A stretch of 64,000 bases of DNA from Promethearchaeota archaeon. GTDB lineage: Archaea > Asgardarchaeota > Lokiarchaeia > Sigyniarchaeales > SOKP01. Below, piece by piece: positions 32,748 to 36,111 of the stretch. The position numbers and the translations under genes were made by a program. The stretch is taken from NCBI GenBank assembly GCA_029838195.1, contig JALGVJ010000004.1:64001-128000 (forward strand), read 5' to 3'. The first letter of the stretch is position 1; each line of letters starts with the position of its first letter. The notes under the pieces were generated by a model. It had not been told where the DNA came from and searched no databases. It was given only the letters and a program-made list of their open reading frames with translations.

Positions 32748-33008
32748 TCATCATCCCACATAAATCGAAAATAACTTAGGATTTATAATTTTATATTGAA
32801 ATTAAATTTTATTAATAAATTAGAAGTAAACTTATCTCTTTAATTAAAATCTTTATCGAAAAACTTCACGGATATGATGATGGGCACATTTGTATTATAA
32901 AATAGTTTTAACGGCGCGTGATCTCTCATTTAAAAAACGAATTTGAGGAAACAAAAAATAATTTAAATAGCACTTGATTTATTGTTATAAAAAAGGAAAG
33001 TAGTGTTC

Positions 33009-33929
33009 ATGTTTAAAGAGAAATTTCGAAAGGGCATTATTAGTGCTAAACAATTTAATAGGGAAGATCTCGAATATATTTTAAAAAAAGCAAAGGAAAT
33101 GATGAGTATTCAAAATTCCAATATTTTACAAGGAAAGATATTGGCAACCTTATTTTTTGAACCTTCTACAAGGACACGTCTCAGTTTTGAATCGGCGATG
33201 TATCGATTGGGGGGAAAGGTGATAGGATTTCAATCAAGAGAGGTTTCCTCTATCAAGAAAGGAGAATCCCTGGCAGATACCATTAGAACAGTGCAAAATT
33301 ATTGTGATTGCATTGTCATACGGCATTCATTAGAAGGAGCTGCGAAATTGGCTTCAAGATTTGCTAAAGTTCCTATCATTAATGCAGGATCGGGTAGTGG
33401 AGAGCATCCAACGCAAGCTTTACTGGATTTATTTACAATAAAAGAAGAATGTGGTACGATCGATGGATTAAATATCGGGATCATGGGTGATTTAAAATAT
33501 GGAAGAACTGTTCATTCCCTTTCCGTATTATTAATAAATTTTGATGTGAACATATATTTTATTAGTCCAAAAGAATTGGTCATGAGAGATAGCGATAAGG
33601 ATTTTTTACTCTCCCGTCAAGTAAAGGTTAAAGAAATTTTCGATTACAGAAAGGTCTTAGATATTTTAGATGTACTTTACATGACAAGAATTCAAAAAGA
33701 ACGATTTATAGATCCTGAAGAATATGAAAAAATGAAAAATATCTATAAATTCACGGAGAAGGATCTGGAGCTAACTAAAGATAATTTTATTTTACTACAT
33801 CCTCTTCCCCGGGTTACAGAGATTTCTTATAACATAGACAAATATGAAAACAAAGCAAAATATTTTAAGCAAGTATATTATGGATTGCAATTACGAAAGG
33901 CTCTTTTAGCCGAATTATTAGCAGATTAA
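33009..33929 (+). CDS. pyrB: Aspartate carbamoyltransferase catalytic subunit
   Basis: FFEPSTRTRLSFE, HPTQALLD, GDLKYGRTVHS, YMTRIQKER, HPLPR. Confidence 0.96.
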   Translation: MFKEKFRKGIISAKQFNREDLEYILKKAKEMMSIQNSNILQGKILATLFFEPSTRTRLSFESAMYRLGGKVIGFQSREVSSIKKGESLADTIRTVQNYCDCIVIRHSLEGAAKLASRFAKVPIINAGSGSGEHPTQALLDLFTIKEECGTIDGLNIGIMGDLKYGRTVHSLSVLLINFDVNIYFISPKELVMRDSDKDFLLSRQVKVKEIFDYRKVLDILDVLYMTRIQKERFIDPEEYEKMKNIYKFTEKDLELTKDNFILLHPLPRVTEISYNIDKYENKAKYFKQVYYGLQLRKALLAELLAD

Positions 33930-33949: not shown

Positions 33950-35956
33950 TTATGAATTTTTAATGCTAAAAAATGGGATATTCGACTTGAATAAAAGTCG
34001 CTCTATTTCTCGAACTTCTTGATTGTCAATTGAGGGCATGAACACGTTAAATAATGACCCTCCATTCATGAATTGAGATAGTTTTTCATGTAGTTTAATT
34101 CTTTCTTGTAAGGATAACGATGTTTTTTTCTTTATTAACGTTGTATTGAATTTTATTTGAGAATTTTTCATTTCTCCTCCATATTCCCGATGTTTCTTTA
34201 ATCCTCGATTAAGGACATGAGGTTGAGTTAATGTATAATTGATATTTTCATCTTCTTTCCGCTCTTGAATCAAGGAATTCATTTCTTTTAAGATTTTTAG
34301 TCCAAAATGCATGCTACTTTGAGATTTTTCAAAATCTAGACCACAGTGGGTAATAATGGCTTCCCTAAAGTTAAAAAAACTAATAGATCGTACAGCTGAT
34401 TCCATACATTCTTTTGCGGAATCCTCAAAACATTTAGAAATAAAATAATTCCACCATTTGTTCTTTCCTATTTTTTGAGTAATAAAAGATTCTTTAAAAG
34501 AAAACAATTCAAAAACAGAATTTAACCGATCATCAACTTTTTCAAGAAAAAAATCGTCATTACCTTTAGATAATGATGCTATGGATAGAAGATTTATCAA
34601 AATTTTATCCATAATTAGTTGGTTTGCTATATGATTATTTCTTGTCTCTTTTGATATTTTAATAAGAGCGGAATTTAACAAATTAGAGTATTCATTTACA
34701 TGAAAAATAATGTTATTTTTTCCACCATTGATTAGCCGAATTTTTTGAAGAAAAGAAACTTTATCATTCTTTAAAAATCTAGGTAATTGAATTAAAATTA
34801 ATGGCTTGACAGGAAAACCACCGTAAAAACCCTCATTTTCATTTAAAATTTGAGTGATTTTCTTAAAAAATGTTAAATTCTCCTCATTTTTATCTTGTTC
34901 TTGAAGGCTCTGAGAAAAGTCTAATCCTAAATTCGGAACGAAGGAATCTCTTGTTTTATTTAAAAAATAGGTTATTCGGGATTGTAATACTGATGATATA
35001 ACAGGATTATATGAATGATTTTTGAATTTATCCAAAAAAAATTGATCAAAATCCCCTAAAATAATATCTTCTGAAAAGAATTGAGAGATATTTTCTAAAA
35101 AATCGAAACTTTTTAAGATACATTCGGTAATAGAATGTTGGTCATTATTATTAAGAGGAGGCAGATGTTCTTTTTCTTGAATAAAATTCATTAAATTGTT
35201 TGTATTCAAAAGACAAGAAAAAGGGCGTAAATTCCAAGTATTTAAATGTAATAATAAAATATCATTAGAAAGATATGAATCCGCTAAATTATTTGGTAAT
35301 AAATTTAATAATAAAAATTGTTCAGAAACATCGGAACCTAATTTTTTCAAATAATGTGCGGGCAGAATATTATTATCATTAAATAACTTAAATACCTCAT
35401 GAGGAGGACTTCCCAGACGCGTGAGTTTATGCCTAACTTTCTCAAGGCCATTTTCTATTAAAATTGCGTTAATTAATTCTCTCATCAAGGGGGCAGTAAG
35501 ATATTCTATATTTGTTTTTTGGAGCCTCTCAATAGTCTCATTTGCTATTTTTTTAGCCAAATTTTGCTCCAAATTTCCTTCTTTTATTAAATATTCCTCG
35601 ATTTTTTCGATTTTAAAAGGCTCCTTAGAATACTTTGAAGTTCGTATCATCACTGTTTCATTCTCTTCATTTAAAATATTTTCAATGGTTTCAAGACTTT
35701 TTACCATTTTTTGTCCTAAAGGCGTGAGTAAATAGCCATTTTTAGAGCTCTTAATGAGATTATTATTTTTTAATGTATTCAGGTGGAACGATAAATTAAC
35801 ATTATTCGAATAGTGCATCGAAATTTTCTTCTTTAAATAAGAAAAAGACAGGGGATGAGATGAGCGCTGCAACGATTTCAATAAATTGATTCTAACTTCA
35901 TGGCTAATAATTTTTAATTGCTCTTCTAATAATCGTGCGATTTCGTCGGCGAGCAT
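33950..35956 (-). CDS. ArsR-type winged HTH + ATP-cone + degenerate class III ribonucleotide reductase (NrdD)-like fusion
   Basis: N-terminal RINLLKSL...LSFSYL...LSFHLNTL...YLLTPLG (wHTH). Then IRTS...EYLTAPLMRELINAILIENG...TRLG (NrdD-type ATP cone). Then LPNNLADSYLSNDILL, matching NrdD ADAHxxGDIHIHDL. No C-terminal zinc ribbon or RxxGY glycyl-radical motif. Confidence 0.75.
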   Translation of the reverse strand: MLADEIARLLEEQLKIISHEVRINLLKSLQRSSHPLSFSYLKKKISMHYSNNVNLSFHLNTLKNNNLIKSSKNGYLLTPLGQKMVKSLETIENILNEENETVMIRTSKYSKEPFKIEKIEEYLIKEGNLEQNLAKKIANETIERLQKTNIEYLTAPLMRELINAILIENGLEKVRHKLTRLGSPPHEVFKLFNDNNILPAHYLKKLGSDVSEQFLLLNLLPNNLADSYLSNDILLLHLNTWNLRPFSCLLNTNNLMNFIQEKEHLPPLNNNDQHSITECILKSFDFLENISQFFSEDIILGDFDQFFLDKFKNHSYNPVISSVLQSRITYFLNKTRDSFVPNLGLDFSQSLQEQDKNEENLTFFKKITQILNENEGFYGGFPVKPLILIQLPRFLKNDKVSFLQKIRLINGGKNNIIFHVNEYSNLLNSALIKISKETRNNHIANQLIMDKILINLLSIASLSKGNDDFFLEKVDDRLNSVFELFSFKESFITQKIGKNKWWNYFISKCFEDSAKECMESAVRSISFFNFREAIITHCGLDFEKSQSSMHFGLKILKEMNSLIQERKEDENINYTLTQPHVLNRGLKKHREYGGEMKNSQIKFNTTLIKKKTSLSLQERIKLHEKLSQFMNGGSLFNVFMPSIDNQEVREIERLLFKSNIPFFSIKNS

Positions 35957-36111
35957 CAGTTATTCTGTAATGTCCCAATTTTTTTAGAAAATATCTAAAA
36001 AATAATAGGACTCTTACTTATAAAAAAATTTGGGACAGATCTCATGGAAAATTAAATTCTAATAATATCCCGGTGATATTTTATGAAAAATAGAAAATTT
36101 TTTTGTTTGTC

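Follow-up and report, generated by a model that had tools for sequence, protein, structure and literature searches.

Why would an archaeon keep an intact gene for an anaerobic ribonucleotide reductase that seems to have lost the means of catalysis and carries a DNA-binding-type head? The question is raised by an open reading frame (ORF) on the minus strand, positions 33950-35956, of a 64,000-nucleotide (nt) stretch of Promethearchaeota archaeon DNA (GenBank assembly GCA_029838195.1, contig JALGVJ010000004.1, positions 64,001 to 128,000), referred to below as the window. The first-pass annotation of the window described the product as an ArsR-like winged helix-turn-helix (wHTH) followed by an ATP-cone of the archaeal NrdD type and a body with residual similarity to NrdD, the class III ribonucleotide reductase (RNR), and proposed that it is a pseudo-enzyme controlling nucleotide-metabolism genes. 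The ORF is uninterrupted over its 668 codons, and all the details described at first pass are found in its sequence. The reading that we favor, with a probability of roughly 55%, is that the protein is a non-catalytic descendant of class III RNR that acts as an ATP/dATP-sensing regulator, an analogue of bacterial NrdR.

The state of the catalytic features was read from an alignment with true NrdDs of related genomes (L033, L034, and P0227) and with wHTH-bearing relatives. The true NrdDs carry a finger loop with "CCxx" or "MGCR", the HxHD and NxN motifs, the four Cys of the Zn ribbon (CxxC..CxxC), and the glycyl-radical loop SRITGY (RITGY), none of which is present in the window protein. The HxHD motif binds triphosphate and NxN forms the active-site flap (PMC11226230; for motif roles see also PMC12662201). 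At the finger-loop column the window protein reads "YSNLLNS" versus "CYQCCAF", "CSSCCSH", and "MGCRTRL" in the true NrdDs, and no conserved Cys is found at the column of the second active-site Cys (T4 C79; the thiyl-radical Cys is T4 C290, and the T4 numbering was checked). The HxHD site is replaced by L-L-L-H (A-L-L-H in the family consensus), in agreement with the decay of H..GDIHIHDL to YLSNDILLLHL described at first pass, and the C-terminus, ...IPFFSIKNS, includes neither CxxC pairs nor RxxGY, also as described. All 27 aligned members of the subfamily end at the same C-terminal point, and the Zn ribbon is absent from the whole Loki subfamily. Among 116 rows counted by script as wHTH-bearing, three of which (P0241, P0254, and P0267) were later judged otherwise, the ribbon is present in 55; the finger-loop Cys motif of true NrdDs is kept in none of the aligned wHTH-bearing rows. 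The absence of an adjacent gene for the activase NrdG holds on a larger scale, as no model of NrdG or NrdG2 reaches its cutoff anywhere in the genome (96.6% complete). Judged from these alignments, both this copy and the Loki-type subfamily are pseudo-enzymes, in which the finger-loop Cys and the HxHD and NxN motifs are missing along with the Zn ribbon and the Gly loop. Public records label members of the family as "anaerobic ribonucleoside-triphosphate reductase."

The body is nevertheless recognizable as that of NrdD. The Pfam model NRDD matches residues 453-666 (E 2e-18), but of its 562 profile positions only 283-505, in the second half, are covered, and the NCBIfam NrdD model TIGR02487 gives 66 bits versus a cutoff of 326. 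An AlphaFold2 model built from 27 homologues (predicted local distance difference test [pLDDT] score, 75) was compared with solved structures by Foldseek, and the 36 best matches in the PDB are all class III RNRs, with E values down to 3e-19, including the cone-bearing enzymes of S. thermophilus and P. copri. The ten-stranded alpha/beta barrel of RNRs is thus predicted to be retained.

A recent truncation of this copy, the alternative raised at first pass, is rejected. A word-indexed search identified more than 460 homologues of 650-673 amino acids (aa) with the same architecture, the closest having 82% identity, and the form of about 665 aa is carried by 64 of the 68 further genomes assigned to its GTDB family. 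Among deeper relatives, many long forms retain a Zn ribbon together with a degenerate Gly loop. The family is not specific to Asgard archaea either: a scan of species genomes identified 351 carriers among TACK and Asgard archaea, including Jord-, Frey-, Atabey-, Baldr-, Odin-, and Helarchaeia and many Bathyarchaeia and Methanomethylicia, and some of the carrier genomes are complete, such as those of Ca. Methanosuratincola and closed Asgard genomes. When 1.84 billion representative sequences were searched with a profile, there were 217 clusters (50% identity) at E<1e-30, most of them of 600-860 aa and matching from the wHTH on. The survey of Asgard and TACK genomes suggested at first pass showed a conserved neighborhood (see below) and a family far wider than one Asgard gene. 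Literature searches on the architecture, on DUF7347, on NrdD-like regulators, and on inactive NrdD gave nothing relevant, and no paper on the family was found.

The N-terminal head is of the ArsR type, as the first-pass annotation had proposed. Pfam DUF7347 matches residues 12-87 (E 1.5e-10), and a profile of the N-terminal 100 aa matches the solved repressors ArsR, CadC, HlyU, and CzrA with a best E of 1e-6, the recognition helix being covered. This helix lies at about residues 52-66, in which N54, S56, F57, H58, and L59 are invariant. The NCBIfam model HTH_metalloreg (NF033788) gives 37 bits, under its cutoff of 55. When residues 1-190 were predicted as a homodimer, a score of 0.51 was obtained, the best of three controls giving 0.00; of proteins whose solved structures are pairs of one chain, 20 of 30 attain this mark, compared with 1 of 23 of those solved as single chains. 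Contacts agree by at least 84% between runs, partner pLDDT is at least 73, and the interface (residues 3-27 and 80-99) corresponds to helices α1 and α5. The predicted dimer is in the ArsR mode, so that the pass may stem from its likeness to solved ArsR dimers.

The ATP-cone is matched by PF03477 at residues 103-174 (E 8e-4) with 20.3 bits, below the gathering score of 25.8. The same match is precomputed for about one third of the listed homologues, and the region aligns with the cone of the class II RNR of the same genome at an hhalign probability of 98.3%; because of these two results the domain is classified, despite the subthreshold score, as a divergent cone, its homology being secure by the profile alignment and by topology. 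In the cone hairpin, Arg105 is kept and the preceding Lys is replaced by Ile or Val, likewise in the true NrdD L033. The hairpin Lys of studied cones contacts phosphates (roles of cone residues according to PMC11226230 and PMC12662201).

In a FastTree phylogeny calculated without the wHTH columns, a quick method with few outgroups, the wHTH-bearing forms make up one clade (support 98). Within it the Loki short form falls (support 99) into a ribbon-less clade, itself inside the ribbon-bearing forms. On this tree the Loki-type gene represents a derived offshoot of a far larger clade, every member of which carries the wHTH. Within the subfamily, the columns of the cone have a mean identity of 0.85, those of the connector 0.80, those of the wHTH 0.71, and those of the barrel 0.47-0.65; conservation in the family peaks in the cone, where 40 of 80 columns are invariant, and the connector with the first core segment has 28 of 68. 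The barrel residues invariant in the subfamily include N455, D450/K451, and H537/C538, and N455 is the only one that is invariant family-wide. By this pattern, purifying selection acts on the sensor and the head, not on the barrel.

The same genome encodes a third NrdD-like paralogue (contig C89, L023:7141-8961, plus strand; 606 aa), which consists of an ATP-cone and NrdD core without wHTH, with the finger loop deleted and neither Zn ribbon nor Gly loop. Many sister genomes have it as well (about 603-626 aa), and it appears in the quick tree as the sister of the wHTH clade (support 84, long branch). Next to it on the 3' side is the gene for a RagA/Gtr1-like GTPase whose N-terminal part is folliculin/longin-like.

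A lead to a function came from a short sequence, CCGACAAAAWT (9-11 nt). Most Loki-type sister genomes hold a full-length true NrdD as well as the wHTH-less third paralogue, and each of the 15 nrdD-type genes examined (13 of full length and 2 shorter forms of genus g7) has the element upstream, about 65-115 nt 5' of the ATG where the start could be called and about 80 nt 5' of the open frame in the other two. The two g7 forms (L174 and L175, from G144 and G261; 627-640 aa) start like true NrdDs, are matched by PF13597 only to about position 506, and may be further C-terminally reduced reductases. Of 44 orthologues of the wHTH-NrdD gene itself, 42 also have the element, preserved at the nucleotide level, across codons 3-6 (coding positions +7 to +17). 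There, residue 3 may be S, A, T, or P, yet the "CC" of its codon does not change, and no Asp codon other than GAC is used, even though GAC makes up 16.5% of Asp codons in these genomes and NCC codons 8-11% of their classes. The fixed CC and invariant GAC, despite their rarity, therefore indicate selection on the nucleotides. In the orthologous loci (L117-L156) many start codons are TTG or GTG instead of ATG, immediately 5' of the element.

Only three to nine exact copies of the element occur per genome. Among the remaining copies, one is located about 200 nt 5' of an orc1/cdc6 gene in two genera, and a test over 29 genomes of several genera identified it, with one mismatch at most, upstream of orc1/cdc6 in 21, always in the forward orientation and 93-211 nt from the gene; a background of 0.15 per kb predicts about 0.9, and the reverse strand gave none. 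Each orc1 gene has a single copy at its 5' side, without an origin-like array. In genus g4 (L156) the element lies in the opposite orientation. The promoters of pyrB and of the gene for ribosomal protein L44e, and the regions upstream of the 606-aa paralogue and of the class II RNR, were searched and do not contain it. In three genomes of two genera (L182, L200, and L183; G049, G071, and G057), CCGACAAAAAT is located in inverse orientation 130-155 nt upstream of a conserved ORF of 122-126 aa that belongs to no Pfam or NCBIfam family, which makes this ORF a candidate further member of the regulon. The element also recurs with a 216-aa ORF and with a divergent pair of 93-aa and 342-aa ORFs.

A second link to RNR genes is provided by gene order. 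Among 80 loci of Bathyarchaeia, the next gene after that for wHTH-NrdD, on the same strand, is a true nrdD in seven to eight and a class II RNR gene in three, an operon-like adjacency that points to a specific link with RNR; in one Asgard genome the gene converges on a true nrdD (L033).

The ArsR-like head with its predicted dimer, the shared element, and the adjacency to RNR genes in Bathyarchaeia altogether support the regulator reading, indirectly. We infer that two ArsR-type winged helices, paired via α1 and α5, bind nucleic acid, presumably DNA, that the cone binds nucleotide and reads ATP versus dATP as in RNRs and NrdR, and that the dead barrel is a dimeric scaffold relaying the signal; the protein itself would be the reader of the element, and the sign of its regulation is likewise inferred. 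In Loki-type genomes the targets marked by CCGACAAAAWT would be the true nrdD, one orc1/cdc6 gene, and the 5' end of the regulator's own gene, implying autoregulation. A bolder version of this scheme, which we regard as rather doubtful, would place the dead reductase, as a master switch, at the top of an archaeal "S-phase" regulon, in which ATP/dATP would be read by the cone and perhaps deoxyribonucleoside triphosphates (dNTPs) by the retained effector region, and one cis-element would couple nrdD, orc1/cdc6, and the synthesis of the switch itself.

Several observations weigh against the regulator reading. The element is asymmetric, and its copy in the gene of the regulator is situated about 55 nt 3' of the likely transcription start, which is an odd site for an operator; with respect to transcription the element mostly keeps one orientation, so that an RNA element would also fit; and Orc1/Cdc6, itself a winged-helix DNA binder, could read it. 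The promoters of pyrB and class II RNR lack it, and in the window's own genome it is degenerate and no regulon was found for either the element or the local palindrome (see below). As to the sensor, the phosphate-contacting Lys of the hairpin is replaced, as it is in a true NrdD, and a profile of the cone compared with PDB sequences found no solved cone at E<=1. Finally, good conservation of promoters and leaders is general in the family, as seen at pyrB and L44e, and because of this the conservation of the gene's own promoter was given no weight.

Because the element is asymmetric and lies inside the regulator's coding region, its recognition by Orc1/Cdc6 or at the level of RNA must be counted among the real rivals. 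Orc1/Cdc6 proteins contain a winged helix and bind asymmetric origin boxes. The wHTH-NrdD gene could accordingly be a co-regulated member of a replication and dNTP regulon and not its regulator, the element being read by Orc1/Cdc6 or another factor and the dead reductase doing something else, for instance buffering or sensing nucleotides while tethered to chromatin. We consider this unlikely. The presence of the element upstream of orc1/cdc6 itself and its single, asymmetric form, as opposed to the palindrome expected of an ArsR-type dimer, suit such a winged-helix reader; the solitary copy in place of an array of the origin type does not, and the element is not known to resemble any consensus sequence of origin recognition boxes. 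The conservation of the wHTH, including its recognition helix, and the specific RNR link in Bathyarchaeia also count against this reading. Recognition at the level of RNA, by which the protein would bind the leaders of nrdD and orc1 and its own coding start for autogenous control, is improbable in our estimate: the site at +7 to +17 falls within the translation-initiation zone and the element is on the sense strand in all three genes, but the inverse orientation in genus g4 and 5' of the 122-126-aa ORF fits recognition of DNA, the orc1 leaders would need a length of 100-210 nt, and ArsR-type domains are DNA binders.

Two further explanations keep the protein closer to its enzymatic origin. As a non-catalytic regulatory subunit it would pair, through the NrdD dimer interface, with true NrdD or the 606-aa paralogue, the wHTH being secondary. 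The connector and first core segment are indeed among its most conserved parts, and both possible partners are encoded in most sister genomes, but the retention of an intact gene in the window's own genome, where no true NrdD was found, and of the wHTH in every member of the clade make this proposal quite improbable. That the protein is still an enzyme, with a chemistry needing neither a glycyl nor a thiyl radical, is hardly credible. Such an activity could draw on the retained barrel fold and the few barrel residues kept throughout the subfamily; all the substrate-binding and radical motifs are gone, however, and the barrel is the least conserved part, with one residue only (N455) invariant there in the family at large. 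The regulator reading remains the one that we prefer.

In the window's own genome, the putative circuit looks partly dismantled. The element is degenerate (CCGACGAAA in place of NCCGACAAAAAT), a search for the degenerate variant in this genome gave nothing coherent, and a regulon based on CCGACAAAA was rejected (41 matches versus 29 expected, mostly at ends of repeats or insertion sequences). A true full-length nrdD and a motif-bearing orc1/cdc6 were not found in the assembly (96.6% complete); G302, of the same genus, has both. The only recognizable working RNR is a class II enzyme of the RTPR type with its own cone (contig C34, L022:4437-6677; TIGR02505, 444 bits). Either the partner genes are in the unassembled part or the circuit was rewired in this lineage. 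Two repeat families containing CCGACAAAAC are located at many contig ends of this genome (for example, C30:50, C31:49, C38:48, and C94:49) and probably represent the terminal repeats of insertion sequences, at which the assembly breaks.

Upstream of the gene a TATA/BRE-like box (BRE, transcription factor B recognition element) is followed by a perfect 9-5-9 inverted repeat (Table 1). As a potential operator the palindrome may be of interest and is a weak lead: an inverted repeat with an arm of at least 9 is found in 3.8% of upstream regions, and the sole exact copy of its 7-5-7 core, TTTTAGA N5 TCTAAAA, in the genome is that in the gene's own promoter. A palindrome regulon was rejected, since 13 one-mismatch matches were found versus 34 in a reversed-genome control. 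The first-pass annotation suggested a search for shared palindromes upstream of nrd and pyr genes. In sister genomes a shared but asymmetric element was found upstream of nrdD; the pyrB promoter lacks it, and the palindrome yielded no regulon. The wider first-pass claim of a regulator of nucleotide metabolism gains indirect support from the ArsR-like head, the element, and the RNR adjacency in relatives, and is weakened by the degenerate element at home, where the partner genes were not found.

Table 1. Features of the wHTH-NrdD gene and its surroundings in the window
Feature	Position	Strand	Basis or remarks
Whole gene	33950..35956	(-)	668 codons plus stop; wHTH, ATP-cone, and catalytically dead NrdD fold
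ArsR/SmtB-type winged helix, residues 1-100 (α1-α2-α3-αR-wing-α5)	35657..35956	(-)	Pfam DUF7347/HTH_45/HTH_20, PDB profile, secondary structure
ATP-cone, residues 103-182 (beta-hairpin and four helices)	35411..35650	(-)	Pfam, hhalign, secondary structure
Connector and first NrdD core segment, residues 183-250	35207..35410	(-)	without NxN flap; holds decayed HxHD site
Decayed HxHD site YLSNDILLLHL, residues 228-238	35243-35275	(-)	alignment
Rest of NrdD alpha/beta barrel, residues 251-668	33953..35206	(-)	ends before Zn ribbon and glycyl-radical loop
Finger-loop remnant, about residues 420-436	34649-34699	(-)	no Cys
Degenerate element CCGACGAAA, codons 3-5	35941..35949	(-)	42 of 44 orthologues keep the family element NCCGACAAAAAT
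Perfect 9-5-9 inverted repeat (TTTTTTAGA N5 TCTAAAAAA)	35980..36002	(-)	between TATA box and start codon; genome-specific
TATA/BRE-like promoter box (AAATTTTTTTATA)	36019..36031	(-)	75 nt 5' of start codon; position and sequence conserved in most Loki-family orthologues
pyrB (aspartate carbamoyltransferase catalytic chain)	33003..33929	(+)	convergent with the gene, gap 20 nt

The protein was compared with three known families. With NrdD (PF13597, TIGR02487; 8P23, 9D3X, 4COI, and 1H7B) it shares the predicted overall fold, a cone of the same "VRT" type as that of the true NrdD L033, and, by the tree, common ancestry. It differs in the lack of the thiyl-radical Cys and all the other catalytic motifs, in the low TIGR02487 score, in the absence of a detectable NrdG, and in its extra ArsR-type wHTH. 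It descends from NrdD and has none of the catalytic features. NrdR, the bacterial repressor of RNR operons composed of a Zn ribbon and an ATP-cone, is rare in archaea (PMC2795772). The likeness to NrdR, the family that the window protein would most resemble in its way of working, consists in a DNA-binding-type head fused to a cone and in the association with RNR genes, via neighborhood and the shared cis-element. Unlike NrdR, the window protein has a winged helix of the ArsR type where NrdR has its Zn ribbon, about 480 aa of it make up a complete dead RNR body, its candidate site is an asymmetric 9-11-mer and not a pair of palindromic NrdR boxes, and its candidate targets include orc1/cdc6. 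It is an analogue of NrdR and, apart from the cone, not a homologue. With the ArsR/SmtB family (6J05 ArsR, 1U2W CadC, and 1R1U CzrA) it shares the α1-α2-α3-αR-wing-α5 topology, sequence similarity, and the predicted α1/α5 dimer; the head scores under the curated cutoff, the protein is six times larger, and the sensor would be a cone with a dead enzyme instead of a metal site. No regulator of RNR genes came up for these archaea in literature searches.

The surroundings of the gene are conserved as well. Its upstream neighbor on the same strand is the gene for ribosomal protein S7, and the order S12-S7-[gene], then convergent pyrB, is found in 44 of 44 Loki-family loci examined, with L44e after pyrB in 43. 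The convergence on pyrB described at first pass extends to 23 of 84 loci overall, from Bathyarchaeia to Loki, the neighborhood recurring in Bathy-, Atabey-, Odin-, and Baldrarchaeia. This pairing is striking for convergent genes and fits a theme of nucleotide metabolism; it is taken as context only, because the pyrB promoter lacks the shared element. In the divergent intergenic region between L44e and pyrB (window positions 32748-33002; L117-L156), the two promoters are strongly conserved across the family. The pyrI gene is not beside pyrB in the Loki family and is divergent from it in the loci of Bathy-, Atabey-, Odin-, and Baldrarchaeia. Unlike the Loki neighborhood, that of Methanomethylicia and of Jord-, Frey-, and Atabeyarchaeia (L037-L086) places the gene just 3' of a mevalonate trio on the same strand, encoding 3-hydroxy-3-methylglutaryl-coenzyme A (HMG-CoA) synthase, thiolase, and a DUF35 protein with an oligonucleotide/oligosaccharide-binding (OB) fold.

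Annotation pipelines that name this family as an active enzyme distort the metabolic reconstruction of Asgard and Bathyarchaeia genomes. If the protein is a regulator, it would be a clear case of an enzyme scaffold reused as the allosteric sensor of a transcription factor. Should the more tentative "S-phase" regulon prove true, it would tie the supply of DNA precursors to the initiation of replication in the closest archaeal relatives of eukaryotes, and the element common to orc1/cdc6 offers a directly testable handle on this link between dNTP supply and replication in Asgard archaea.

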